Shown here one piece after another: positions 1 to 12,209 of a DNA stretch of 12,209 nt. Both the position numbers and the translations under genes were made by a program. This DNA comes from a virus. Lineage: Duplodnaviria; Heunggongvirae; Uroviricota; Caudoviricetes. Location: the IMG/VR virus record IMGVR_UViG_2547132415_000021, positions 1 to 12,209 of that record; one strand, given 5' to 3'. Numbering within the stretch: the stretch's first letter is position 1; each line of letters starts with the position of its first letter. The notes below the pieces were generated by a model, which had not been told where the DNA came from, searched no databases, and saw nothing but the letters and a program-made list of their open reading frames with translations.

Positions 1-1362
1 ATGTTTAAACCGGAACTCCTTTCCCCGGCGGGAACGCTGAAAAATATGCGTTACGCTTTCGCTTATGGCGCAGATGCTGTTTATGCGGGCCAGCCGCGTT
101 ACTCCCTGCGTGTGCGCAACAACGAATTCAACCACGAAAATCTTCAGCTCGGCATCAATGAAGCCCACGCGCTGGGGAAAAAGTTTTATGTCGTGGTCAA
201 CATTGCACCGCACAACGCCAAGCTGAAAACCTTTATCCGTGACCTGAAACCGGTGGTGGAAATGGGGCCGGATGCGCTGATTATGTCCGATCCAGGGCTG
301 ATTATGCTGGTGCGTGAGCACTTCCCTGAAATGCCGATCCACCTCTCGGTGCAGGCTAACGCCGTAAACTGGGCGACGGTGAAATTCTGGCAGCAAATGG
401 GCCTGACCCGCGTGATCCTCTCTCGCGAGCTGTCGCTGGAAGAGATTGAAGAGATCCGCAATCAGGTGCCGGATATGGAGATCGAGATCTTCGTTCACGG
501 CGCACTGTGCATGGCCTACTCCGGTCGCTGCCTGCTCTCTGGCTATATCAACAAGCGCGATCCGAACCAGGGTACCTGCACCAACGCCTGCCGCTGGGAG
601 TACAACGTCCAGGAAGGGAAAGAAGATGACGTTGGCAACATCGTACACAAGTACGAGCCGATTCCGGTGCAAAATGTTGAGCCGACGCTGGGTATCGGCG
701 CGCCAACCGACAAAGTGTTTATGATCGAAGAAGCCCAGCGTCCGGGCGAGTATATGACCGCGTTTGAAGATGAGCACGGCACTTACATCATGAACTCGAA
801 AGATCTGCGCGCCATCGCCCATGTAGAACGCCTGACCAAAATGGGCGTGCATTCGCTGAAAATCGAAGGCCGTACTAAATCTTTCTACTATTGCGCACGC
901 ACCGCACAGGTTTACCGTAAAGCTATCGATGACGCCGCTGCGGGCAAACCGTTCGATACCAGCCTGCTGGAAACTCTGGAAGGTCTGGCGCATCGTGGCT
1001 ATACCGAAGGTTTCCTGCGTCGTCATACTCACGACGATTATCAGAACTACGAATACGGTTATTCAGTTTCTGACCGCCAGCAGTTTGTTGGTGAGTTTAC
1101 CGGTGAGCGCAAGGGGGACCTCGCGGCGGTAGCGGTGAAAAATAAATTCTCCGTTGGCGACAGCCTTGAGCTGATGACGCCGCAAGGCAACATTAACTTT
1201 ACCCTTGAGCACATGGAAAACGCCAAAGGTGAAGCGATGCCGGTCGCACCAGGCGATGGTTATACTGTGTGGCTCCCGGTCCCGCAGGATCTTGAGCTCA
1301 ATTACGCTCTGCTGATGCGTAATTTCTCCGGGGAAACCACGCGTAACCCACACGGTAAGTGA
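1..1362 (+). CDS. yegQ: U32-family peptidase-like protein YegQ (also called TrhP, tRNA hydroxylation), 453 aa, apparently complete
   Basis: ORF starts with ATG at position 1 and runs 453 codons to a stop. The protein is recognisable by recall as E. coli YegQ, including the CxxxC-containing region (GALCMAYSGRCLLSGY, TCTNACRWEY) typical of U32 proteins. The gene sits immediately upstream of cyaR as in E. coli K-12. Confidence 0.9.
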   Translation: MFKPELLSPAGTLKNMRYAFAYGADAVYAGQPRYSLRVRNNEFNHENLQLGINEAHALGKKFYVVVNIAPHNAKLKTFIRDLKPVVEMGPDALIMSDPGLIMLVREHFPEMPIHLSVQANAVNWATVKFWQQMGLTRVILSRELSLEEIEEIRNQVPDMEIEIFVHGALCMAYSGRCLLSGYINKRDPNQGTCTNACRWEYNVQEGKEDDVGNIVHKYEPIPVQNVEPTLGIGAPTDKVFMIEEAQRPGEYMTAFEDEHGTYIMNSKDLRAIAHVERLTKMGVHSLKIEGRTKSFYYCARTAQVYRKAIDDAAAGKPFDTSLLETLEGLAHRGYTEGFLRRHTHDDYQNYEYGYSVSDRQQFVGEFTGERKGDLAAVAVKNKFSVGDSLELMTPQGNINFTLEHMENAKGEAMPVAPGDGYTVWLPVPQDLELNYALLMRNFSGETTRNPHGK

Positions 1363-1392
1363 TTAATTTCGATTATTTTTCCCGGATGGAAA

Positions 1393-1439
1393 ATTCTTAG
1401 AAACCGATCACATACAGCTGCATTTATTAAGGTTATCAT
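1393..1439 (+). promoter_or_regulatory. Putative cyaR promoter: CRP half-site TCACA (1408-1412) centred about 42 bp upstream of the sRNA 5' end, and a -10-like TATCAT (1434-1439)
   Basis: Seen in sequence: TCACA at 1408-1412 with an imperfect partner half-site TTAGA at 1397-1401, and TATCAT 8-13 bp upstream of the predicted cyaR start at 1447. Established knowledge: CyaR is CRP-activated. The left half-site is a poor match, so the exact site is uncertain. Confidence 0.4.
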
Positions 1440-1446
1440 CCGTTTC

Positions 1447-1533
1447 GCTGAAAAACATAACCCATAAAATGCTAGCTGTACCAGGAACCACCTCCTTAGC
1501 CTGTGTAATCTCCCTTACACGGGCTTATTTTTT
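1447..1533 (+). ncRNA. cyaR: CyaR (RyeE) Hfq-dependent small RNA, 87 nt, ending in its intrinsic terminator
   Basis: The sequence gctgaaaaacataacccataaaatgctagctgtaccaggaaccacctccttagcctgtgtaatctcccttacacgggcttatttttt matches my recollection of E. coli CyaR. It ends in a CCC..GGG hairpin followed by a T6 run, and lies between yegQ and ogr as in K-12. Confidence 0.8.
1507..1533. other. P2-type attachment core (attR), 27 bp, coinciding with the 3' end of cyaR
   Basis: Positions 1507-1533 read aatctcccttacacgggcttatttttt. Its reverse complement AAAAAATAAGCCCGTGTAAGGGAGATT is what I recall as the 27-bp P2 att core, and ogr (the gene next to attR in a P2 prophage) follows immediately. Recall-based; needs alignment to P2 attP. 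Confidence 0.5.
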
Positions 1534-1596
1534 ACGTACAACAAATTGAAATAAAAGGATTTATTTCTGGTCACGTCCACATATTGACCACATCGA

Positions 1597-1621
1597 CAAA
1601 AAAGCCCCTCGACTGAGGGGC
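1597..1621 (-). terminator. Rho-independent terminator downstream of ogr (minus strand)
   Basis: Hairpin gcccctc-gact-gaggggc at 1604-1621. On the minus strand it is followed by a T6 run (the plus-strand A-run at 1598-1603), about 14 nt after the ogr stop codon. Confidence 0.6.
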
Positions 1622-1634
1622 TTCCTGTTTCTAA

Positions 1635-1853
1635 TTACATCCACATAATTTGCTGCCCTGACGGCAACGGGTGCGGCCTTACGGCGTGGACTTCTCCCGG
1701 CTTCACGATGTATCGCTGCACCGACTCATAAGTGATGAACGTGGCGCTGCAATTCACGTTCTGGCACTGGTGATAACGCTCTTTTGTCGTGTCAGTGATA
1801 TAGCGACTTGTACGCGCATGTGCGGCATGCTGGCATAAAGGACAATGAAACAT
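1635..1853 (-). CDS. ogr: Ogr, P2 late-gene transcriptional activator (C4 zinc-finger), 72 aa
   Basis: Protein MFHCPLCQHAAHARTSRYITDTTKERYHQCQNVNCSATF... has the CxxC...CxxC zinc-finger pattern and matches my recollection of P2 Ogr/OgrK. The start at 1853 is preferred over the upstream in-frame ATG at 1916 because a strong SD (aagaggtg) sits about 7 nt upstream of 1853 and Ogr is 72 aa. Confidence 0.9.
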   Translation of the reverse strand: MFHCPLCQHAAHARTSRYITDTTKERYHQCQNVNCSATFITYESVQRYIVKPGEVHAVRPHPLPSGQQIMWM

Positions 1854-1934
1854 CGCGAGCACCTCTTCCGGTTTTGTTGATGGTGCCATTTTAGTTAATT
1901 TATCCTTATAAAACAAACAGATAAAACAAAAACA

Positions 1935-3098
1935 TCACTCATCACCTTCGGTTTCGTACTCCACATCAGAAAGCCTGACCTCAAGCTCCAAGGACGTCGT
2001 GAAGCCGCTATTATTCAGAAAATGTGTCACCTTAGTGATTGTCCAGTCCTGCTCGTCTATGACGCGCTTAAAGCCTGACACTTTGACCGGCGTTTCCGTG
2101 TAAATATCTGCCCGACCGGTAGCCAGGCTGATGGAGAACTCCGCAACGCCCCGTTGCAGTTTATCCCACTTCGCCTGAGCGGCGCGCATGGCCTGCGCTT
2201 TCGTGGCATATACCGTGGTCAGGGCAAAAACATTGTCAGCCTCACCGGCCATGTATTCACCTTCGCGCGCTTCCGGTACTTTTGACGCTTTCTTCTGCGT
2301 GACCGGTTTCGCTTTCGGGTGCTCCAGTGCGCGCAGGTGTTTCTCTTTCTTTTTGCGTTTCAGTTTTACCTTCTGCTTTTGCGGCTTCGGGTCTTTGGTG
2401 TGTAACCACTTTGCCGTTACGCCTGTGTAGGCTCCACGGTCAGCAATCGCAAAATGATGACGGTCGCCGTCGCTGCGGGTGATGGTAATCTGCGGGATTT
2501 TTTTACCGCTGGCCGTCACCCCCTGCCCCGCTTTGAGAAACAGCAGTTTTCCCATTTTTACCGACACCTCACCGCCGTTGCGTTCAGCAAGACGGGTCAG
2601 GAATTTCGCATCGGACTCCTGCGACTGGTCGATGTGCGGGATTTTAATTCCGGCCAGTGACGGAGCGACACTGGCTTTCAGCCTGTTACGGGAGGCTATC
2701 TCCTCAACAATCGCACCGAGCGTGGTGTCATGCCAGGAGCCTTCACGGCGGGAATTGAGCGTCCCGCGAAAATCTGCACTCCGGGCGCGGATGGTAACCA
2801 CATCCGGCGCGCCCCGGTGTTCAACCTCATCAACGGTAAATTTCCCTTTGCATACCAGGGCAAAACCTTTCCAGCCGATATACACCGTCAGGACAGCGCC
2901 ACGAACCGGCAGCCCGACCTGCCCGTCGGCATCGTTCAGTTCAATATCAAGCTGGTCAGCCTCAAAGCCCCGGTTATCCGTCAGGGTCATGCTCATCAGA
3001 CGGTCGCTGATATTGCCGGTAATATCCCTGCTGTCGAGCATCAGCATGTAATCCGGCGTCAGCGTACTGCCTGCATCAAATGTCAGCGCATCCGGCAT
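1935..3098 (-). CDS. D: P2 gpD-like tail protein (phage late control D family), 387 aa
   Basis: 387-aa ORF in the position and order of P2 D, between U and ogr. Its start ATG overlaps the U stop (TAATG at 3096-3100). Full length, unlike the truncated yegZ remnant of K-12. Confidence 0.88.
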   Translation of the reverse strand: MPDALTFDAGSTLTPDYMLMLDSRDITGNISDRLMSMTLTDNRGFEADQLDIELNDADGQVGLPVRGAVLTVYIGWKGFALVCKGKFTVDEVEHRGAPDVVTIRARSADFRGTLNSRREGSWHDTTLGAIVEEIASRNRLKASVAPSLAGIKIPHIDQSQESDAKFLTRLAERNGGEVSVKMGKLLFLKAGQGVTASGKKIPQITITRSDGDRHHFAIADRGAYTGVTAKWLHTKDPKPQKQKVKLKRKKKEKHLRALEHPKAKPVTQKKASKVPEAREGEYMAGEADNVFALTTVYATKAQAMRAAQAKWDKLQRGVAEFSISLATGRADIYTETPVKVSGFKRVIDEQDWTITKVTHFLNNSGFTTSLELEVRLSDVEYETEGDE

Positions 3099-3577
3099 TA
3101 TCCCGCCCCCGTCATACCTGTGAATCTGGTCGCCATACTGCCGGCCTTACCGATGAGCGATTCCGCCTGTTTACCGATATCGCCATAAAGCGCGGCCAGT
3201 GATTCATCAACGCGGGTGAGCGACAGCGTAAAATCAATTTTCCGGGGTGTGCCGTCTGCAAAGAAAATACTCCCTGTTTCACTCACCTTACTGATGACAT
3301 ACATGCCGTAAATCATGCCGGTGCCATCCAGCAACGGCCACGCCCGACCTTCCTCTGCCATCAGCCTGAGCGTGGTCATCGTCAGCTTGCCGCCGGTCAG
3401 TTCGGGATAAAGCACACCGGCCAGCGTGATGTTTTCCTCACCCACACCGAGAAACTGAAAGGCATCCCGTTTGCCGATACGGGAATTTGACGGCCAGCGA
3501 TAATCTGATTCACGCTGCATGGTCTGGTGTGGCAGCGTCTGGCGCATAAAAACAAACATACCTAACGCGAGCATCAT
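3098..3577 (-). CDS. U: P2 gpU-like tail protein, 159 aa
   Basis: 159-aa ORF between T and D. A strong SD (ggaggtg) lies 7 nt upstream of the ATG at 3577 and overlaps the T stop codon. Confidence 0.85.
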   Translation of the reverse strand: MMLALGMFVFMRQTLPHQTMQRESDYRWPSNSRIGKRDAFQFLGVGEENITLAGVLYPELTGGKLTMTTLRLMAEEGRAWPLLDGTGMIYGMYVISKVSETGSIFFADGTPRKIDFTLSLTRVDESLAALYGDIGKQAESLIGKAGSMATRFTGMTGAG

Positions 3578-3591
3578 TTTTCGTCACCTCC

Positions 3592-6039
3592 TTAACCGTC
3601 ATGCATCATGCTGGCACGGGCGCGCGCACGTTTATCCCGCTCGTATTTTTCGAGTGCATCCTGTAACTGGCGGTCGAGCTGTGTCCCCGGCGCAGTACCA
3701 CCCGTCAGGCTGATGTGATATTCGTTTTTACTCTGGTCCACATAAGAGCGGCCAGCCGGTGCCGTAACCGGCTGATAAGCCTGATAGCCTGCATAAGAGC
3801 TGGTCGCCGGAATATAACCACCGCTGCCATACGTGGTGGCTTGAGTTCTGGCGGCGGTCTGGTCAAGTGTGTCTGACTCTTTGTTGATAACACCGAGTTT
3901 TTCCAGTACCCAGTCAATTCCGCTGCGCAGTTTGTTGAACGCATTAAGCGGCAGCATCAGCGCGTCAGCCAGTGCCTGCCCGAACATGACGCCAGTATCA
4001 CGGCAACGGTTCAGGGTGTCCTGGGTGGCTTTGACCGGGGCAATCAGGTTTTTAAACCACTGCCACGCGGCCTGTAACTTTTCGCCCAGCCAGTCAAACA
4101 CCGGCTTAAGTGGCGTGAACAGTTCCCCCACCGGCGCAAATGCCGCTTTCAGCCCTTCCATCACACCGCCAAAGAATGCGCTGACAGGCTCCCAGTATTT
4201 ACGGATAAGCAACGCCCCGGCGACAATGGTGGCCACCACGGCCACAACCGGCCAGCTAATCGCCCCGATGGCGGTCATAACAGCACTGCCAACCGTCGTG
4301 AAGACTGCCCCCATTGCGCCTGCTGCCGCGATGATGGCATTAATGCCGGTGATAACCGGCCAGGCTACAAGACCAATTGCACCGATGATGCCAGTAAGCG
4401 CCAGTGCGCCACCGACAATGAGGCCGATGGTTGACGCCAGTGATTTGTTTTTCTTGATCCAGCCGTCGAGTTTTAACACATACTTTGTGGCCGTCTGAGT
4501 GAGCTTACGCAGCGCGCCTTCCTGCTGGTCAAACAGGTCAGTCCCCACCGCCTCATAAGCGGACTGAAACTCCTTAAAGTCACCGCCGAGGTTGTCCTGC
4601 ATGATATTTACCAGCTCGGCGGTCTTCCCGTCTGAGGCTTTAAACGCAGCGGTCAGTTTGTCCAGCTTTCCGGTTGAGGCGGCAGTCATCAACACGGCGG
4701 CGGCTGAGCTGGCCTCCTCCCCGAAAATAGTTTTCATGTATTCAGCCTGCTGGGCAGTACCGAGCCGGTTTTTCTCAAAACTGGCCTGCATTTCTTTCAG
4801 AATGGTAAATACTGGTCGAGTATTCCCTTTACTGTCTGAGGTTTTCACGCCAAGCTCTTTCAGTGCATCCCATGCTTTTCCCGTCGGTGCCTGCAGGCGG
4901 CTTAACACGGCACGGCTTCCCGTCCCCGCCATTGAACCGGTAATTTTTGCATCATGCAGCGCCCCGACCATTGCGGCGGTTTCTTCAATGCTGACACCAG
5001 CATTTTTTGCCACAGGTGCGGCATAGGTCAGCGCATCGCTCATGCCATCAAAATCGGCGGCGGTTTTGTTCATCGTCATGGAGAGAACATCCCCGATATG
5101 AGCAACCTTATCGTTTGAAAGCTGAAAGGCGGATTTCATCCCCATCAGCAGGGCGGCGTTTTCTTCCATCGTGCGACGGTTCGCCAGCGCCATATTCAGC
5201 GTGACCGGCGTTGCCGCCTGAATGGCATCAACATCCCCACCGGCTTTCGCAATAATAATCTGCGCACCGGCTGCATCATCTGCCGAGGCTGCGGTATTGT
5301 CGCCGAGCTGGCGCGCCTGCTTGCGTAGTGCAGCCATTTCGGCGGAGTCTTTTGCCACACCGAGCACAGCCTGCAATTCTGAGTTTTTCTGCGCAAACTC
5401 ATAACCGGGCATCAGCAACTTAACTCCGGCCATCGTTCCCGCAGCAGCAATCCCCACACCGGCAGCGCCCACTGAGGCCATATTTCCGGCCAGTTCCTTT
5501 CCGGCCTGATAACGCTGTTTTACTGCGTTAAGTTTTGCCTGTTGTGCACTGACACGCGCCAGCGCGTCACGCTGACGGTTAAGCTGTGCGGTGGTTTCAC
5601 TGATACGGTTTTTCAGTCCCTGCTCATCATGTGCAAGATTGCGGGTATTAATTCCCACAGCGGCCAGTTCCCGCTGCTGGCGTTTAATGGAATCTGTCAG
5701 GCGGTTATATTTCGCCTGTAAGTCCTCCGCCGCACGCTTTGCGGATTCCAGCACTTTCGCCTGAGCACGGGTCGGACGTTCAGTGTTTTTAAACTGTGTG
5801 GCAAGGGCTTCGGCTTCCTGCCGTGCCTTTTCAAGTGCATGACCAGTCACGGCAAGCTGTGCGCTGGTCTTGCGAAATCCCTCAATACGGGATGCGTGAC
5901 CGTTCAGCTCGCGCAGTGATTTTTGTGTTTCCCGGATATCCCCCGACAGCGACTTACTCGCTGTACGGATGGATTTAAACGGGCGGGATGCCTGGTCAAC
6001 AGCCCTGAGCAATACCTGTAATTTTACATTGTTACTCAT
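3592..6039 (-). CDS. T: Tail tape measure protein (P2 gpT-like), 815 aa
   Basis: 815-aa ORF with a long Ala/Gln-rich, coiled-coil-like N-terminal half and hydrophobic Gly/Ala-rich segments, typical of tape measure proteins. It lies immediately downstream of the E/E' frameshift chaperone pair, and its start overlaps the E' stop. Confidence 0.9.
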   Translation of the reverse strand: MSNNVKLQVLLRAVDQASRPFKSIRTASKSLSGDIRETQKSLRELNGHASRIEGFRKTSAQLAVTGHALEKARQEAEALATQFKNTERPTRAQAKVLESAKRAAEDLQAKYNRLTDSIKRQQRELAAVGINTRNLAHDEQGLKNRISETTAQLNRQRDALARVSAQQAKLNAVKQRYQAGKELAGNMASVGAAGVGIAAAGTMAGVKLLMPGYEFAQKNSELQAVLGVAKDSAEMAALRKQARQLGDNTAASADDAAGAQIIIAKAGGDVDAIQAATPVTLNMALANRRTMEENAALLMGMKSAFQLSNDKVAHIGDVLSMTMNKTAADFDGMSDALTYAAPVAKNAGVSIEETAAMVGALHDAKITGSMAGTGSRAVLSRLQAPTGKAWDALKELGVKTSDSKGNTRPVFTILKEMQASFEKNRLGTAQQAEYMKTIFGEEASSAAAVLMTAASTGKLDKLTAAFKASDGKTAELVNIMQDNLGGDFKEFQSAYEAVGTDLFDQQEGALRKLTQTATKYVLKLDGWIKKNKSLASTIGLIVGGALALTGIIGAIGLVAWPVITGINAIIAAAGAMGAVFTTVGSAVMTAIGAISWPVVAVVATIVAGALLIRKYWEPVSAFFGGVMEGLKAAFAPVGELFTPLKPVFDWLGEKLQAAWQWFKNLIAPVKATQDTLNRCRDTGVMFGQALADALMLPLNAFNKLRSGIDWVLEKLGVINKESDTLDQTAARTQATTYGSGGYIPATSSYAGYQAYQPVTAPAGRSYVDQSKNEYHISLTGGTAPGTQLDRQLQDALEKYERDKRARARASMMHDG

Positions 6040-6459
6040 TCGTGTTTCCGCTTCGCCGGAGCGCCTTTTCGCGCCATGTGATGAGTTCGGTCAGGCTCAT
6101 GGGATACAGTTCTGATGGCGGCCAGTGAAATATCACTGCCACATCCGCCATCAGGTCATCGACCGACAGATTTTTCGGGAACGTTACTGCACCGAGTTCG
6201 GCGACAAAAAACCGACCACCTTACCGGCCAGCGCCACAAGGTCAGGCAGTTCCAGCGCGGCGACTTCCTGCTCGGTCAGCATCGGTGCCGTCATGCGCGG
6301 CAGCACCTTAATCAGTGCATCGACTTCGGAGTTCGCGACCGCTGCCAGACTGACACCGCGCAGCGTCCCGGCACTGGGTTTCATCAGCGTGACCTGTTCG
6401 ATAACCTGCTCACCACGTTTGACCGGATTGTCCAGGGTAATGACGTTTTCTTTGTTCAT
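6032..6459 (-). CDS. E+E': gpE+E' tail assembly chaperone made by programmed -1 ribosomal frameshift (142 aa predicted)
   Basis: Hand translation: after a -1 slip on the heptamer T-TTT-TTG (minus strand, 6205-6211) the reading frame continues ...GFFVAELGAVTFPKNLSVDDLMADVAVIFHWPPSELYPMSLTELITWREKALRRSGNTNE to a stop at 6032-6034. That gives 142 aa, the length I recall for P2 E+E'. Confidence 0.75.
6184..6459 (-). CDS. E: gpE tail assembly chaperone (zero-frame product), 91 aa
   Basis: 91-aa ORF directly upstream of T. It contains the slippery heptamer near its 3' end, the arrangement analogous to lambda G/GT and conserved in P2. Confidence 0.85.
   Translation of the reverse strand: MNKENVITLDNPVKRGEQVIEQVTLMKPSAGTLRGVSLAAVANSEVDALIKVLPRMTAPMLTEQEVAALELPDLVALAGKVVGFLSPNSVQ
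6205..6211 (-). promoter_or_regulatory. Slippery heptanucleotide TTTTTTG, the -1 programmed frameshift site of E/E'
   Basis: Minus-strand sequence ggt-ttt-ttg at codons 83-85 of E. The -1 frame downstream is open for 57 further codons and ends overlapping the T start. Confidence 0.7.
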
Positions 6460-6515
6460 GGTTTTCTCACTTCTGAATCGTGGTTAACCGGTCAGCCAGG
6501 CTGACCGGATGAAAA

Positions 6516-7034
6516 TCACAGGCCGATATTGCGGCGGTGTTGCTCCAGCCGGTCGACGCCGTTCACCTTCTCAATCATGTTGATGGTGTCGATTTCGACC
6601 AGCTCCTTACCGTCCATCGTCAGCCGGAAATAGGTGCAGACCACGGAGATTTTCGACTCGGTGTCTTCTCCCTGTTTACCCTCGCCGGTGTCGATTTCTT
6701 TCTGACGTCCACGCATGACCACCTCGACGGCCACCGTTTCGCCGGTATCGTCGCGCTGGTAAGAGCCTGCAAAACGAATCGGCACAGCATCCACACCGGT
6801 TGCGGCGTAAAGCTCCCAGATAACCGAATCCGGGAAGCCCCCGAGCGACCACTCCATTGACAGCGCATCGTCATCAAGGCCGAGGTCTACCGGTGCGCTG
6901 CCGTTCATCCCCGCACCGCGATAGTTTTCGAGCTTACGGGTCAGTTTTGGCAGCGTGACGGACTTTGCAACGCCCTGATAGCTGTAGCCGTTCAGAAAGA
7001 CGTTCATTAACTTGAGTTTGCGCGGCATTGCCAT
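6516..7034 (-). CDS. FII: Tail tube protein (P2 gpFII-like), 172 aa
   Basis: 172-aa ORF immediately downstream of the sheath gene. SD aaggag lies 8 nt upstream of the ATG at 7034. Order and length match P2 FII. Confidence 0.9.
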   Translation of the reverse strand: MAMPRKLKLMNVFLNGYSYQGVAKSVTLPKLTRKLENYRGAGMNGSAPVDLGLDDDALSMEWSLGGFPDSVIWELYAATGVDAVPIRFAGSYQRDDTGETVAVEVVMRGRQKEIDTGEGKQGEDTESKISVVCTYFRLTMDGKELVEIDTINMIEKVNGVDRLEQHRRNIGL

Positions 7035-7046
7035 CGGTCAGGCTCC

Positions 7047-8237
7047 TTAATTGCTGTTAACCGAGGTGACCAGATTTGCCAGATATTTATCGGTAATACG
7101 CTGGCGCAGGGTCAGGTTTTCGAGAGGAGGCACCGGGGTATAGTCGTAGTCGATATACAGTTTTCCGGCCTTGAGGGTTTCCGCATCGTTGGATTCTTCG
7201 CTGAACCAGCAGGTCGCATCCACGATATAGCCGTTTGTTTTCAGCTCACGGAATTTGGCATTGATGCCGTCAACGATGTCGCGAATCAGCGTTGCGGTGA
7301 TGGGCTTGTCCACCGCCCACATGTGCGCCTCAGCCATCGTGTCGGCCAGCACCTGCGCGGTGCGGGTGTAGTTTTCAAAGAGGAACAGCGGGTCATCGGA
7401 GCAGGTACGGTTACCCCAGAAGCGGAAACCGTCGCGGCGAATCAGCGTTGTGACGCCTGACTCGTTAAGCAGGTCAGCATCGGTGCCGGACTCCTGCAAA
7501 TCCCAGAATACAGATGCGCTGATGCCGGTAACACCGTTCACCCCGACATTGGACAGCGTTTTATGCCAGCCCTGCTCTTGGTCGATTTTAGCGCGCAGAC
7601 CCAGCGCACGGGCGGTGGCATACGCGGTGGCGGTGGTGCTGCTGACCGTATCCCATGCGAGGAAATCCGGCCAGATGACCATCAGCTCACGCTGGCTGAA
7701 ATTCTGGCGGTAGGCTTTCACCTCGGAAATGGTTTTGCAGCCCCATGCGCTGATATACCCGAAAGCGCGCAGCTTCTGACAGACTGATGCCAGTGCAACA
7801 GCAACCTCTTTGGTGTCCAGTCCCGGCACGCCGAGAATACGCGGTTTAACACCGGTTACCGACTCCGCCGCCAGCAGGGCTTTCAGTCCGGTGTACTGAC
7901 CGTTTTCGTCGGTGGTGCCGATGATATTGGAAACGGTCTGCGCGAGTTTCGTTTCCTCGTCTTCGCCGGTGCCGTCTTCCACACGCACGACAACGGTGAC
8001 CGGTTTTGACTGGTCGGCGATAGCCTGCAACGATGCCGCCAGCGTGCCTTTTTTACCGGCCTTTGCAATCGCGCTCTGCACATTGGTAATCAGCACCGGT
8101 TTATTGAGGGGGAAGATTTCCGCATCCGCATCGCTGGCCGTGCAGACCATGCCGACAATGGCCGTGGATACAGTGGAAATGACACGGGTGCCGTCGTTAA
8201 TCTCCAGCACCTGCACGCCGTGATGATAGTCACTCAT
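7047..8237 (-). CDS. FI: Contractile tail sheath protein (P2 gpFI-like), 396 aa
   Basis: 396-aa ORF, first gene of the FI-FII-E-T-U-D block. Length and position match P2 FI. Confidence 0.9.
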   Translation of the reverse strand: MSDYHHGVQVLEINDGTRVISTVSTAIVGMVCTASDADAEIFPLNKPVLITNVQSAIAKAGKKGTLAASLQAIADQSKPVTVVVRVEDGTGEDEETKLAQTVSNIIGTTDENGQYTGLKALLAAESVTGVKPRILGVPGLDTKEVAVALASVCQKLRAFGYISAWGCKTISEVKAYRQNFSQRELMVIWPDFLAWDTVSSTTATAYATARALGLRAKIDQEQGWHKTLSNVGVNGVTGISASVFWDLQESGTDADLLNESGVTTLIRRDGFRFWGNRTCSDDPLFLFENYTRTAQVLADTMAEAHMWAVDKPITATLIRDIVDGINAKFRELKTNGYIVDATCWFSEESNDAETLKAGKLYIDYDYTPVPPLENLTLRQRITDKYLANLVTSVNSN

Positions 8238-8332
8238 CCGTTTAACTCCGTGGTTAATGGGTGCAACTATTTTCTGTTGGGCAGTGCATGAGACGCTATT
8301 TGACCTGACTGGTCAGTGGATGAAACAACAGA
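8238..8332 (-). promoter_or_regulatory. Putative late promoter region upstream of FI (PF-like), containing the dyad TGACC-N5-GGTCA at 8301-8315
   Basis: Seen: an inverted repeat tgacctgactggtca centred about 71 bp upstream of the FI ATG. Established knowledge: P2 late operons start at Ogr-dependent promoters with an upstream dyad. I could not find a clean match to the TGT-N12-ACA element I recall, so this is tentative. Confidence 0.3.
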
Positions 8333-8364
8333 TAAAGAAAAGGCGGGCAATCAGATTGCCTGCC
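8333..8364 (-). terminator. Rho-independent terminator ending the cargo/upstream transcript ahead of the FI promoter
   Basis: 10-bp stem ggcgggcaat/attgcctgcc (one G-U pair) with loop cag at 8342-8364. On the minus strand it is followed by TTTTCTTTAT. Confidence 0.5.
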
Positions 8365-8469
8365 TTGATTTGTGCTCACTCATTTTCCGACTGACAGTTT
8401 ACATAGCCAAAACGCTATCAAATCTGACAGCCTGCTTTGAGCGAGGAACGGACTAAATGCTCATCTCAG

Positions 8470-8505
8470 CGGTCAAAGGATATTTTTCTTTGACCGTTCT
8501 CTTTA
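8470..8505. other. Perfect 9-bp stem hairpin (cggtcaaag / ctttgaccg, 9-nt loop) just downstream of the SIR2-like gene stop; the U-rich tail is on the plus-strand side
   Basis: Seen in sequence at 8470-8496, followed on the plus strand by ttctctttat. On the minus strand (the gene strand) there is no U-tail, so it may stabilise the mRNA 3' end or block antisense read-in rather than act as the main terminator. Confidence 0.35.
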
Positions 8506-8516
8506 TAGAGAAAAGA

Positions 8517-9425
8517 TTATCTGTTAGTTTTATTCTGAATATCTTTGATTACATCGAGGTAATACTCTTTTTCCTTCCCTTTGAACACTAACCCGAAATT
8601 ATGATTAATTATAACCCCAACACTTTTCAAAAGATCGATTTTTGGTTTGGAAGCAGCGTCATTATAATAATAACCAGGGATGTAATATGTCACCTCATAT
8701 TGCAAGCTTATTTTCTTTGCAATTCTAGTCCTTTCTCTAAATGTAAGTAACCACCAAAGATCAATTTCAACAAAATCCAAATTCAAGCCTAAGATATATA
8801 CATCCTTAGTAAAAAAATCATCGATCCAGCTATTACCAATATCATTTGCTTGCAACCGCTTTGTAAGCGGCTCGTTGAACGATTTATTGGAATACTGACT
8901 TCCGGTAGTTGTATACCCCCGCATGCTTTGCAAATAACCACTGTAATGCTCATAGCCAAGAATTATTGAGCTTGGGTTATTCACTGCTCCATGTATATGC
9001 CATATGTTTTTGTTTTTCACCTGATAATGCCTGAAAATATTGTATTTACTTTCTTTTATTACACCTTCATTTTTTAAATCATCAGGCTTGATGCTGTCGT
9101 CTAAACAATATTCAAAAGCTAAATCATAGTTTGTTGTTAAAATATTATTGCATTCTAATCCAATTATTCTTTGATGGATTTCATTTGGCTTTATTGTGTT
9201 TATCTTTGATGCGATGGAATCTTTTATTTTATTTTCTGAAAATCCATTCACTTGCTTATTTGAAATATTAAAATAAATCTCTTCATAGGCTAGTGGAAAT
9301 GGTTTTTCATGCGTGTCAATTTTTATCCCATATGTTGCCCCTAGGTTATTTAAAACATCAAGCCAAGAATTTCCATTTGTAATATTATTTATGCCATTTC
9401 CAATAAGCAGTGAATAATCGCGCAT
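8517..9425 (-). CDS. Standalone SIR2-like (ThsA-type / SIR2_2-like) putative NAD+-hydrolase, 302 aa; candidate antiphage effector
   Basis: N-terminal Gly-rich motif LLIGNGINN (compare ThsA AGAGLS), TTNYD motif at residues 97-101 (ThsA has WTTNYD), and IWHIHGAVNNPSSIILGYEHY at 141-161 (compare ThsA YKMHGDVEHPSEAVLIKDDY). No SLOG or other sensor domain. SD aaggga lies 5 nt upstream of the ATG. Gene is strongly AT-rich compared with the flanking phage genes. Confidence 0.8.
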   Translation of the reverse strand: MRDYSLLIGNGINNITNGNSWLDVLNNLGATYGIKIDTHEKPFPLAYEEIYFNISNKQVNGFSENKIKDSIASKINTIKPNEIHQRIIGLECNNILTTNYDLAFEYCLDDSIKPDDLKNEGVIKESKYNIFRHYQVKNKNIWHIHGAVNNPSSIILGYEHYSGYLQSMRGYTTTGSQYSNKSFNEPLTKRLQANDIGNSWIDDFFTKDVYILGLNLDFVEIDLWWLLTFRERTRIAKKISLQYEVTYYIPGYYYNDAASKPKIDLLKSVGVIINHNFGLVFKGKEKEYYLDVIKDIQNKTNR

Positions 9426-9549
9426 TTCTATCCCTTATGTTAGATACATTTTTTACACTATACTACTGATATTTATTCTAATACCAGTCATTGGCATGTT
9501 CGACACCGATAAGTTTGATCTTGCCTAGCAACTTATGTTTTCGAATATG

Positions 9550-9557
9550 CCCCCCCC
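9550..9557. repeat. Homopolymeric C8 tract (G8 on the minus strand) in the spacer upstream of the SIR2-like gene
   Basis: Seen: atgccccccccatg at 9547-9560, about 125 bp upstream of the SIR2-like start codon, in otherwise AT-rich sequence. Confidence 0.9.
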
Positions 9558-9655
9558 ATGAAAGTCTTAGACAACTATACCTATTAATATCCTACAGAGT
9601 GCTCTTCGTAGTCAGAAAATGAGAACGAGATAACATCAGTTCATTGGTTTACTCC

Positions 9656-9892
9656 CTACGCAGTTTGTGAGTTAGCACCGTCCGCTTCTGGCACGTAGGG
9701 GACCAACCAGCTGGTCCTCAGGTCCGATATGAGCGAGAAGCTAAAATTCGCAGTTGTTCCCAAAGTCGATGGAGGAATTTTTAACATTACAGTGTATTTA
9801 TCAACGGGAAGCAGGTCACTCTCTATGGTTCTCGCATTATTTGTTAACAAAATAACATATTCTTTTGCTTCATCGATAGTATTGAATATCAT
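9656..9892 (-). CDS. Hypothetical small ORF (78 aa) in the spacer between the two cargo genes; uncertain whether real
   Basis: ATG at 9892 with a weak SD-like GGGAA 3 nt upstream. The N-terminal half (MIFNTIDEAKEYVILLTNNARTIESDLLPVDKYTVML) has cargo-like AT-rich codon usage; the C-terminal half runs through a GC-richer patch with inverted repeats and looks less protein-like. Confidence 0.2.
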   Translation of the reverse strand: MIFNTIDEAKEYVILLTNNARTIESDLLPVDKYTVMLKIPPSTLGTTANFSFSLISDLRTSWLVPYVPEADGANSQTA

Positions 9893-9980
9893 AAGTTCCC
9901 ACTTAACATCGATATCTGCGGTAACTGATTAACACAAAGAAATTCATCCAATAGCAGAGAATAACTTTGAGTTTTAGATT

Positions 9981-10823
9981 TTAAAAAACCTTCAGCCATA
10001 ATGTTTCGAGCCTTGTGCCAATCACGCCTTTTCCAATGTTATCCAGCCCTCGAACCATTGCGTATAAGCCACCTAATATTTGAATCCCTTCCTTTACACC
10101 TAAAGACGAATAGTCAAAAGTTGGAAAGAGGACGTAATAAGACATAATTACCCCAATACAACACTCGAAAACTCCATAGGAAAGACGGAAATTTTCTCTG
10201 TACCAAAATAGTATGAGTCCTAAAACGGGTAAACCCATCATTGTCCCCCAAACTGTAATGGTAGATACCAGTACTTCCATATTGGAATAGACGATGTTTG
10301 CGACTAGAGAAGCAAGCCCGCCGAGCACAAAACTGGCTTTTAGGTAACGCTTTTGAGATGAAACAGCTTTTTCTGCTTTCTCTTCTATTTCTTTATTTAG
10401 AAAATCGCCTTTGCTTTCATTTATAAACTCAATGCCAGTCATAGATGTAATATTCCGACTAGCAAGAAAATAAGACAAGGCACGATCATTGGTCACGACG
10501 CAAGGAACTTCTTCTCCTTGCCGTTCTGCGTAAGAAATAGCTATTCGAGCAATATCAAAGTCTGCCCCAGTCAAACGCTGAGCATTTCTATCGGATTGGA
10601 AGATGTCGTTTTTTATTTTTTCAGGCGCTTCAACTATGAGCACACCAGCGGGAATTGACGAGGCCACTAAATCAGTAATATCTGACCATTTGTTGCTTTT
10701 CCCTCTATATGAAAGCTCATGCATCACAGCTCTTGGGATAACTAGCTTCCGATTTCCAGCTCTAGACAATATCTCCGGATGCTGCAATAAAACATTAGTA
10801 TCTATTATGTATCTACTTGGCAT
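9981..10823 (-). CDS. PIN-domain nuclease fused to a C-terminal 3-4 helix transmembrane region, 280 aa; candidate antiphage effector
   Basis: N-terminus YIIDTNVLLQHPEIL resembles the PhoH2/YlaK-type PIN domain, with candidate acidic residues D8, E36, D89/D91 and D113 (VVTNDRAL). C-terminal hydrophobic segments ASFVLGGLASLVANIVYS, VLVSTITVWGTMMGLPVLGLILFWY and YGVFECCIGVIMSYYVLFPTF. SD aggga lies 6 nt upstream of the ATG. AT-rich. Confidence 0.8.
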   Translation of the reverse strand: MPSRYIIDTNVLLQHPEILSRAGNRKLVIPRAVMHELSYRGKSNKWSDITDLVASSIPAGVLIVEAPEKIKNDIFQSDRNAQRLTGADFDIARIAISYAERQGEEVPCVVTNDRALSYFLASRNITSMTGIEFINESKGDFLNKEIEEKAEKAVSSQKRYLKASFVLGGLASLVANIVYSNMEVLVSTITVWGTMMGLPVLGLILFWYRENFRLSYGVFECCIGVIMSYYVLFPTFDYSSLGVKEGIQILGGLYAMVRGLDNIGKGVIGTRLETLWLKVF

Positions 10824-10839
10824 AAGCTATCCCTGATAC

Positions 10840-10870
10840 CTTAATTTATCAAATAAAACGGTATGTAAAC
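10840..10870 (-). promoter_or_regulatory. Possible sigma70-like promoter for the PIN-TM gene (-35 TTTACA at 10864-10869, -10 TAAATT at 10843-10848 on the minus strand)
   Basis: Seen in sequence only. The spacer is 15 bp, which is suboptimal, so this is a weak candidate. Confidence 0.2.
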
Positions 10871-10970
10871 ATATAAAACATAACTTCACAACTCACTTAT
10901 CAATGCAAGTTTCCCAACCAGGCAAGCCATGTGCTTAGATATCTGACCTAACGTTTCTAAATTGATGAAT

Positions 10971-10994
10971 GTCCGCTATTGGCACGGAGCGGAC
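10971..10994. other. Hairpin gtccgct-N10-agcggac about 60 nt downstream of the G stop codon
   Basis: 7-bp perfect inverted repeat with a 10-nt loop. There is no clear U-tail on either strand, so its role (weak terminator or RNA processing site at the end of the H-G operon) is unclear. Confidence 0.3.
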
Positions 10995-11054
10995 TGTCAG
11001 ATTAGGCTTTACTCTGTGCCATAGATATGTAAGCTCCCACCAGAGCTCATACAC

Positions 11055-11582
11055 TTATTGCGGCATTTCCGGCCATTCAGGATTTGCAGTATCCACACGA
11101 CTGACAAGAACGCTGTAGCGTTCCCATGCCTCCAGTCGACTGCGCTCCTCATCTGTTGCCATATTCAGCCTGACAGCGCGCTCCAGCGGCAAAATCAGGG
11201 ATTCGGCTTCGGAAAGCAAAGTTGCCTTTTGTGATTCTGCCAGTTGCTGCTGTTCGTCTGCCGTATAAATCCGCTTAATCACTGCACCATCCTTAAACAT
11301 CCATTTACCTGAGTCATCAGCACGCCGGTTGGCAGTAATATCAGGAACCTCAACGACGCTAAAACCTTCAGGATTAAGCGTTGAAGCATCTCTGGTGATG
11401 GCGACAATAATATTATTTTCATCATAAACAATCTTTATTGTCTCTGGCTGAAAATTACTTACTTCCTCATACCAGTTTTTTCCGTCTTCGGACCATAACC
11501 AGATAACATCAAAATTCTTTGTTAGCTGATATTGCTCTTTTGTTTTTGGATTACCTGACTTAATGTTCTTTAAATGCTGCAT
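11055..11582 (-). CDS. G: Tail fibre assembly protein (P2 gpG-like), 175 aa
   Basis: 175-aa ORF immediately downstream of the tail fibre gene (H stop at 11586-11588, G start at 11582). Length and position match P2 G. Confidence 0.88.
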
Positions 11583-11585
11583 AAC

Positions 11586-12209
11586 TTATACCTGCGCAAC
11601 GTTATACCATGTGCCATTGATGTATTTTTGTATTGGTCTGAATACTGCCGGATCATCGCCATCAACTTCACCGACAATACCAAGCCCCGTAATTGCATGG
11701 CCTGATTTTTCATACATCACGCCTTTCTGCATGGTCTGCACAACACGTGTGCCAAGTCTGATATCTCTCACATAGCGGGAATCAAAGTTACCGTAATCCG
11801 AGGGATTAACACGCCCCGTAATATTTATGGTCTTATTACTTTGAATGCTTCCGGAGACAAAGCGCATAACATGGACGTTATTAGCATAAACATCTAGATT
11901 ACCATCGCCATTTTGTTTAAATCCGGTGTCGCTATCACCAAGAACAATAGAGTTCCCACCCAACGCGTTATTCGTGCCAAGTGCCAGCCCGCCATCAATC
12001 CTGGCACCATTACCAACAGACACAACTCCTGTTCTTAAGTTGATACCGAATGGCCTTAATGGCCCGATATCCCCATTTTCACCCTCATTTTCTCGTGTAG
12101 GGATGATATACAGGTTTTCTTCAGAACGGCGAAAAATAGCACCAAAAGATGAATTAAATATCCTCAGTGCATTGACTGTAGATATTTTTACTTCACTGCT
12201 GAAAAGGGC
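11586..12209 (-). CDS. H: Tail fibre protein (P2 gpH-like), C-terminal portion only; the 5' end lies beyond the window
   Basis: The reading frame stays open on the minus strand from the window end (12209) to the stop at 11586-11588 (hand-translated), so the GTG 'start' at 12023 in the ORF track is internal. The Gly/Asn-rich repetitive C-terminus is typical of tail fibre tips. Confidence 0.85.

Follow-up and report, generated by a model that had tools for sequence, protein, structure and literature searches.

The spacer between two cargo genes of a P2-like prophage is probably a cassette junction at a recurrent palindromic repeat

The stretch of DNA analyzed here, which we call the window, comprises 12,209 nucleotides of a Caudoviricetes record (IMG/VR IMGVR_UViG_2547132415_000021, positions 1 to 12,209) and is a P2-like prophage at the trhP-cyaR-ogrK locus of Escherichia coli. 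Rfam placed the small RNA CyaR/RyeE at 1445-1530 (100.7 bits), flanked by trhP (1-1362) and an ogr-like gene, a context that is the classical P2 attachment locus. The tail genes D, U, T, E, FII, and FI occupy 1935-8237 (FI, 7047-8237), and the tail-fibre genes G (tail-fibre assembly, 11055-11582) and H lie from 11055 onward. The site flanked by G and FI is the classical Z/fun hotspot, and in the window it holds two cargo genes on the minus strand. One (8517-9425) encodes a SIR2_2/AbiH-like protein of 302 aa (Pfam SIR2_2, E = 2.8e-10), whose AbiH match falls under the Pfam cut-off and which PADLOC matches to ThsA-SIR2-like (2e-10). The other (9981-10823) encodes a protein of 280 aa with a PIN_4 domain (Pfam, E = 3.3e-11) and a C-terminal membrane helix. 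Consistent with an initial annotation made from the sequence, the two genes, SIR2 and PIN for short, are co-oriented and separated by a gap of 555 bp (9426-9980). The subject of this study is that spacer, which the annotation had read as a small third component (protein or structured RNA), as the promoter and 5′ untranslated region (UTR) of SIR2, or as a scar from the fusion of separately acquired genes. Among complete E. coli genomes, only that of ZH177 carries the spacer, and RefSeq annotates nothing inside it.

The GC-richer segment reported within the spacer is real, with a GC fraction of 0.435-0.455 at 9500-9799 compared with 0.25-0.36 in the adjoining cargo DNA. The inverted repeats reported there are also present (CCCTACG at 9654-9660 with CGTAGGG at 9694-9700; GGACCA at 9700-9705 with TGGTCC at 9712-9717), as is the palindrome ACCAGCTGGT at 9706-9715; the CCCTACG/CGTAGGG pair is lost in a relative that carries SIR2 only (locus L205, see below). 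A sensitive DNA search revealed that positions ~9680-9820 recur in about 200 E. coli genomes at 74-87% identity and in unrelated contexts, among them the 3′ side of a gene for a "CBS domain-containing anti-phage protein", a further P2 Z region, and, inside CP4-like islands, the boundary of conserved with variable DNA. A profile trained on these E. coli copies was refined by iteration across loci taken from genome and viral collections. It matched 9679-9818 with 117 bits (nhmmer, E = 1e-35, model positions 2-141) and, more weakly, 8414-8481 (E = 5.6e-6, model positions 29-101) and 10969-11009 (E = 4.6e-7). That the profile matches both strands means that the repeat is palindromic. The best preserved of the three copies in the window is 9679-9818, and the three coincide exactly with the inter-module positions of the hotspot, namely its two borders and the gap between the genes. 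A model-free repeat search agreed, detecting a direct repeat at 9680-9703 and 10971-10994 (83% over 24 nt) and an inverted repeat at 8421-8453 and 10971-11003. The patch that had been described as structured is thus clear as a repeat, whereas as a fold it hardly exceeds chance by its z-scores.

The family has a consensus core of ACGTCCGCTTCTGGCACAAAGCGGACC, approximately 16 variable nucleotides, and GGTCCGCTATGAGCGAGGAGCGGACGT. Its building block is a 24-nt unit in which 8-nt inverted arms (GTCCGCTT and AAGCGGAC) surround an 8-nt centre, giving the consensus GTCCGCTT-N8-AAGCGGAC, and units of two types differ in the central 8 nt, which read CTGGCACA in the L type and TGAGCGAG in the R type. 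At a junction of two cassettes, the unit closing one and the unit opening the other lie about 18 nt apart and form a "double palindrome" of 75 nt. In the window this core, the GC-rich patch of the initial annotation, lies at 9679-9753 (plus strand) as located by nhmmer, and the break points of both cassettes fall within it. It is composed of an L unit (9680-9703, GTCCGCTTCTGGCACGTAGGGGAC), a variable spacer (9704-9721) that contains ACCAGCTGGT, and a decayed R unit (9722-9745, GTCCGATATGAGCGAGAAGCTAAA), which ends in GCTAAA where the family has GCGGAC. An outer arm (9754-9818, plus strand), terminating in ...GGGAAGCAGGTCA at 9818, is similar to the terminal inverted repeat at the left end of the insertion sequence (IS) ISSen4. 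The border copies are less complete. On the tail-sheath (FI) side, 8414-8453 (plus strand) retains a spacer remnant (8414-8429, ..AAATCTGACA) and an R-type unit of 24 nt (8430-8453, GCCTGCTTTGAGCGAGGAACGGAC). On the tail-fibre-assembly (G) side, 10971-11021 (plus strand) retains an L-type unit (10971-10994, GTCCGCTATTGGCACGGAGCGGAC), a spacer remnant (10995-11009, TGTCAGATTAGGCTT), and a 12-nt stub of the second unit (11010-11021).

The border copies are the inverted repeats of the P2 Z/fun region, between G and FI (Nilsson, Karlsson & Haggard-Ljungquist 2004, Mol Biol Evol 21:1), and coincide with the features deposited as "left/right inverted repeat" of P2-EC46 and P2-EC58 (GenBank AJ512680, AJ512683). 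Positions 8400-8454 of the window are 92.7% identical to the "right inverted repeat" of P2-EC58, and identity to the annotated right repeat ranges from 92.7 to 96%. The same border arrangement exists in P2, Wphi, L-413C, P2-EC46, and P2-EC58. The central patch is homologous to these repeats and represents a fuller copy of the same family. In P2-EC46, which also has two cargo open reading frames (ORFs), a third copy lies between them (locus L200, 1507-1676); the deposits annotate only the outer repeats and leave the internal copy unmarked. A review (PMC8987985) summarizes Nilsson et al. (2004) as suggesting that site-specific recombination takes place at the repeats on either side of fun, with exchange with bacterial genomes.

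Each cargo gene was found without the other. PIN occurs alone in L204, an IMG/VR contig that encodes Mu/e14-like tail-fibre proteins and a DNA invertase, where the protein is 98% identical and DNA homology spans window positions 9680-10985 (97.6%), ending at 9680. It also occurs alone in Pectobacterium carotovorum (L206), with a relaxase nearby, where homology spans 9730-10985 (95.6%). SIR2 occurs alone in L205, a lambdoid IMG/VR contig in which tail-tip gene J immediately precedes it (92.2% across window 8433-9705), and in the chromosome of Klebsiella variicola (L207; window 8434-9703, 97.5%), where another repeat copy and an HNH-nuclease cassette come next. L204 and L205 were drawn from IMG/VR, L206 and L207 from a protein collection. 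The cassette limits are reproducible (8433/8434, 9703/9705, and 10985/10985). When the junctions were aligned, every break lay within a repeat unit, near the edges of its 8-nt centre, in four independent contexts (L204-L207). The SIR2-like cassette (8433-9705, minus strand) accordingly comprises the gene with its own 3′ and 5′ flanks, bounded at each end by one repeat unit, and the PIN cassette (9680-10985, minus strand) comprises that gene and its flanks, with a downstream limit of 9680 in L204 or 9730 in L206.

PIN and SIR2 stand together in one prophage lineage only, represented by several E. coli assemblies at least 99.5% identical, and among the few homologue contexts sampled they did not co-occur across diverse genomes. 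Their families differ about 13-fold in size, with 108 homologue clusters for PIN (Proteobacteria and beyond) versus more than 1435 for the SIR2-like protein. In a Salmonella integrative and conjugative element with a SIR2 homologue (L004), the spacer sequence is unrelated and holds no repeat. Since each gene is found alone, its homology stopping in the repeat, there was no pre-existing pair, and PIN and SIR2 are two separate cargo genes, not a demonstrated two-gene system. The suggestion of a fusion scar was borne out: each gene travels with its flanks in two unrelated contexts without its neighbour, and the breaks lie inside the repeat.

Because the cassettes are separate and break inside the repeat, the spacer is built of three pieces: the 5′ region of the SIR2 cassette (9426-9678, minus strand), the junction repeat (9679-9818), and the 3′ tail of the PIN cassette (9819-9980, minus strand). 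We conclude that the spacer is very probably the junction of two independent single-gene cassettes at a copy of the repeat, and not a hidden third gene. This confidence extends to the nature of the spacer, not to the enzymology of joining. The SIR2 5′ region is co-inherited with its gene in L205 and L207, and the proposal that the spacer serves as the SIR2 promoter and 5′ UTR held in that the 255-280 nt upstream of the gene (9426-9705) travel with it in both SIR2-only contexts at 92-97.5% identity, but not in the prediction of a promoter, since a sigma-70 scan of the SIR2 strand of the region found no site at its threshold. A ribosome-binding site, AAGGGA, lies 7 nt ahead of the SIR2 ATG. The stretch 9426-9678 is probably the SIR2 promoter and leader. 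The PIN 3′ tail is AT-rich, has no predicted terminator, and is co-inherited with its gene in L204 (97.6%) and L206 (95.6%).

Within the SIR2 5′ region, approximately 125 nt upstream of the start codon, lies a run of eight C residues (9550-9557; G8 on the sense strand). The tract is G7, G8, or G9 among prophages at least 99.5% identical (L208-L214) and an interrupted G5 in the SIR2-only loci L205 and L207. It could be slippage-prone and affect expression, or else reflect homopolymer sequencing error.

Outside the window, the repeat separates modules of 1-3 genes, and cargo genes lie in either orientation relative to it. The pattern used for scanning genome contigs was too short, so that most of its 120 loci were chance matches, which the profile filtered out. 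The core was found in 478 plasmids, mostly of Klebsiella and Pantoea, and the repeat also stands at a chromosomal intergenic site without other mobile-element genes. Where neighbouring array copies could be oriented with confidence, all 34 of 34 adjacent pairs were co-oriented (binomial p = 6e-11); some loci are related, which leaves nearer 30 independent pairs. Arrays end in single units. On a megaplasmid of Pantoea sp. MT58 (NZ_CP061084, ~445-470 kb; L218-L220), about 16 co-oriented copies lie within 25 kb, between modules of one or two metabolic, transporter, and regulator genes. The array is flanked by 30 kb without copies on the left, and on the right the last 25 kb hold a single weak one (20.8 bits). 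The presence of metabolic and regulator modules indicates that the repeat is not specific to defence cargo. An exact-sequence literature search for the 24-nt unit returned no match.

Several other settings of the repeat were observed. In E. coli B1.H1.18 (L002, 3961-4105) and about 130 similar genomes, a full repeat with an arm abuts the 3′ end of the gene annotated as a CBS domain-containing anti-phage protein, and a truncated tyrosine recombinase adjoins. In four CP4-like islands of E. coli (L006, L007, L009, and L010), it marks a border between a conserved gene of 274 aa and variable cargo; these islands carry YagK/YfjJ and "inovirus Gp2 family" genes, with a second half-copy about 1 kb away. 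In L204 (4072-4662), the PIN cassette directly follows a Pin/Gin-type DNA invertase gene, and L008 has a repeat copy near pinE. From these arrangements, the region after the DNA invertase appears to be another cargo hotspot bordered by the same junction repeat. Directly past the half repeat of the PIN cassette in L206, positions 5081-5144 are 78% identical to window 8389-8452, the FI-side border of P2 including ~40 nt beyond the unit, which means that some apparent P2 backbone is common to a non-P2 context.

When the spacer was compared across relatives, as the initial annotation had recommended, the repeat and the cassette flanks were shared, whereas the ORFs were not conserved and covariation was weak. 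The best-surviving alternative to a cassette junction is that the patch acts mainly in cis on expression, as a pair of hairpins that would insulate or stabilize the 3′ end of the PIN mRNA, as part of the SIR2 promoter or leader, or as a small RNA, and recurs because it is selected for that role rather than through recombination. This agrees with the co-inheritance of the SIR2 5′ region, with the copies that stand between convergent genes on the Pantoea plasmid in the manner of REP-type repeats, and with some covariation in the unit-level hairpins: across 41 distinct copies, 82% of cells are paired, 10 of 15 pairs show double changes, and only 2 of 500 shuffles reached this level. Pairing between the two halves, as a single long hairpin would require, shows no covariation, with 450-496 of 500 shuffles at least as high, so that the complementarity of the halves seemingly follows from their being inverted copies of one unit. 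The core as plus-strand RNA gave the best folding z-score, -2.2, but the other folding energies could not be told apart from those of shuffled sequences (z-scores of -0.27 and +1.2 for the RNA of 171 nt; of -0.7 and -0.5 for the core of 75 nt folded as DNA), and R-unit pairing is lost in the window copy. Nor did searches find an RNA in the spacer. No Rfam family matched even at E ≤ 10 apart from chance-level hits, the covariance-model check of 9350-10050 (Rfam 15) returning only matches of 15-18 bits (E 4-8), a scan for tRNA and tmRNA genes found none, and no terminator-like site was predicted on either strand of 9426-9980, as there is no T-run to form an intrinsic terminator. The structured-RNA version of a third component is thus not supported. 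A sigma-54 promoter at CTGGCAC was rejected by eye for want of a -12 TTGC at the correct spacing. A cis-acting role also fits poorly with cargo lying in either orientation relative to the repeat and leaves the unit-internal break points unexplained, and we regard it as improbable as the main function of the patch.

Even less probable is that the repeat is a passive scar, left when a MITE (miniature inverted-repeat transposable element) derived from an ISSen4-type IS3 element inserted into a pre-existing PIN-SIR2 pair and played no part in joining the genes. The arm at 9754-9818 does suggest such a history. It is ~65 nt long, has a TG...CA-type terminus, and its last 50 nt are, in the arm consensus, 84% identical to the left end of ISSen4 (IS3 family), beside the transposase gene of that element. 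The few two-armed copies include L003, the only one flanked by a 3-bp direct repeat (GAT), the others being ambiguous, and many family copies lie in plasmids and chromosomes. However, 111 of 139 cores have no arm (26 have one, nearly always on the R side, and two have two), and ISSen4 itself lacks the repeat core. The central copy in the window has a right arm and no left arm, and hence not the two IS-like terminal inverted repeats of a MITE. Array copies are always clustered and co-oriented, unlike independent insertions, and the occurrence of the genes singly, with homology ending in the repeat, speaks against any pre-existing pair. Two related candidates were rejected: a cargo-carrying transposon between two ISSen4-like arms, since the arms face away from the cargo, and a 256-bp MITE near ISSen4 on NDM plasmids, which is a different element.

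The weakest alternative, a small protein partner in a PIN-SIR2 system encoded by the minus-strand ORF of 78 aa (9656-9892) noted earlier or by a plus-strand ORF of 67 aa (9729-9932), is highly improbable. In its favour, neither frame is interrupted in the window, the ATG at 9729 that begins the plus-strand ORF falls within a conserved block, and several copies have short ORFs beginning MSEERKF. Against it, the 78-aa ORF crosses segments of different origin, from the PIN tail through the arm and core into the first 23 nt of the SIR2 cassette. In L206 its ATG has become ATA and an in-frame stop lies just upstream, in L204 a 1-nt indel fuses it to another ORF, and it has five non-synonymous versus two synonymous substitutions, so that neither a conserved start and frame nor purifying selection was seen. 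The MSE... ORFs differ in their ends (10-67 aa) and shift frame between copies. Neither ORF matched Pfam or PADLOC, was annotated in RefSeq, or was called as a gene in seven assemblies, and we judge the 78-aa ORF spurious. A leader peptide starting at the conserved R-unit ATG (MSEERKF...) was likewise rejected, given its variable ends and frames and substitutions without third-position bias.

How the two cassettes of the junction were joined is a separate matter. Recombination sites account better than independently inserted MITEs or expression signals for the co-orientation, the clustering, the reproducible breaks inside units of 8-8-8 layout, the single units that end arrays, and the presence of the repeat at a chromosomal intergenic site free of other mobile-element genes. 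We propose that the Z/fun hotspot holds the PIN and SIR2 cassettes head to tail, each with its own flanks and a 24-nt dyad-symmetric end unit, and that the units would act as recombination sites for the exchange of cassettes between replicons. With an L unit on one side of each cassette and an R unit on the other, crossing over twice between like units (L with L and R with R) could swap the cargo and would need no excised circle. For the route of joining, we tentatively favour a site-specific enzyme of the tyrosine-recombinase type acting in trans, which we put at a little short of an even chance. Short-homology recombination or replication slippage at the repeats is a serious alternative with perhaps one chance in three, and what probability remains belongs to other routes.

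A number of observations weigh against this explanation. No recombinase gene was found consistently linked to the arrays or, apart from phage genes, in the window, and the gene table around the Pantoea array, which is incomplete, shows none within 30 kb. The central copy, its R unit decayed to GCTAAA in place of GCGGAC, may be inactive now. The IS3-like arm, read from sequence homology, indicates that transposition helped to disperse some copies at least. Loci were collected with a 15-nt R-unit pattern, which inflates conservation at those positions. Covariation within units is modest, and the shuffle control does not amount to a true probability. The similarity of the units to one another limits the resolution of the break points to a few nucleotides. 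Finally, a functional link between PIN and SIR2 may exist, as far as genomics can tell.

In its logic, the junction repeat resembles two known kinds of modular array, attC arrays and Acinetobacter dif modules, although not in sequence or detail. Like the attC sites of integrons, it is an imperfect palindrome of 60-140 nt that separates small modules, forms co-oriented arrays with a variable centre, and brings the same cassette into unrelated replicons; clusters of attC sites without an integrase exist as well. Unlike attC, it shows no RYYYAAC/GTTRRRY core sites when read by eye, only a loose AAC...GTT symmetry beside the units. It is built of 8-nt boxes and 8-nt spacers, twice, its cargo lies in either orientation, its covariation favours two short dyads over one long hairpin, and no IntI was seen nearby, either in the window or at the Pantoea array with its incomplete gene table. 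In the dif modules of Acinetobacter plasmids, cargo is flanked by pdif sites of the XerC/XerD type. These too are small modules bounded by short dyad sites, found on different replicons with no linked recombinase, a likeness that implies a host enzyme acting in trans; they differ in that there is no sequence similarity, and each junction-repeat site has two heterologous units and its arrays are co-oriented. The junction repeat is not known to be acted on by any enzyme.

Other repeats are more distant. MITEs, ERIC, REP/BIME, YPAL, and ISSen4 share with the junction repeat their palindromic, intergenic, multi-copy nature, and one arm is homologous to an ISSen4 end, but in arrangement the junction repeat differs, most copies lacking IS-like ends and being clustered and co-oriented, not scattered. 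The sfx sites of the R64 shufflon, recombined by the tyrosine recombinase Rci, have a 7-nt core, GTGCCAA, that equals the reverse complement of the L-unit spacer. The sequence GTGCCAA occurs in the P2 border and PIN-cassette units, whereas the consensus of the junction-repeat family is GTGCCAG, and the conserved right arm of sfx, TCCGGTACGTGG, has no counterpart, the junction-repeat units having TAGCGGAC. This 7-nt match can be due to chance and is a lead only.

Two further features of the prophage were noted. The ZH177 copy (L001, NZ_CM125652, 1835358-1845912) has lost the tail genes between FI and D, which are annotated there as partial pseudogenes, so that the window itself stems from another assembly whose tail module is intact. 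Terminator-like hairpins lie at 8340-8366, in P2 backbone upstream of FI, and at 8468-8498, just 3′ of the SIR2 stop codon and with its T-run on the opposite strand.

For annotation, these findings mean that PIN and SIR2 are best treated as separate single-gene modules rather than parts of a two- or three-component system, and that the spacer between them should not be mined for a hidden gene. The repeat itself offers a practical marker with which to delimit cargo cassettes. Repeats of this kind have been known since 2004; what may have been under-appreciated is the generality and regularity of the junction repeat. According to recent surveys (PMC13586616), which give no mechanism, defence cargo at P2 and P4 hotspots is swapped very fast and is shared with other mobile elements. 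The junction repeat is a testable candidate for that mechanism, based on its presence at every module border, the reproducible breaks, and its recurrence in phages, plasmids, and chromosomes. It is conceivable, if rather unlikely on present evidence, that the 24-nt units are the sites of an uncharacterized cassette-exchange system widespread in Enterobacterales, in which heterologous pairs of L and R dyads would flank modules of 1-3 genes and a recombinase acting in trans would swap whole modules among phages (P2-like, lambdoid, and Mu/e14-like), plasmids, islands, and chromosomes. If it exists, such an integron-like system without a linked integrase would yield both the co-oriented arrays, such as the 16-copy array of Pantoea, and the rapid turnover at phage defence hotspots.

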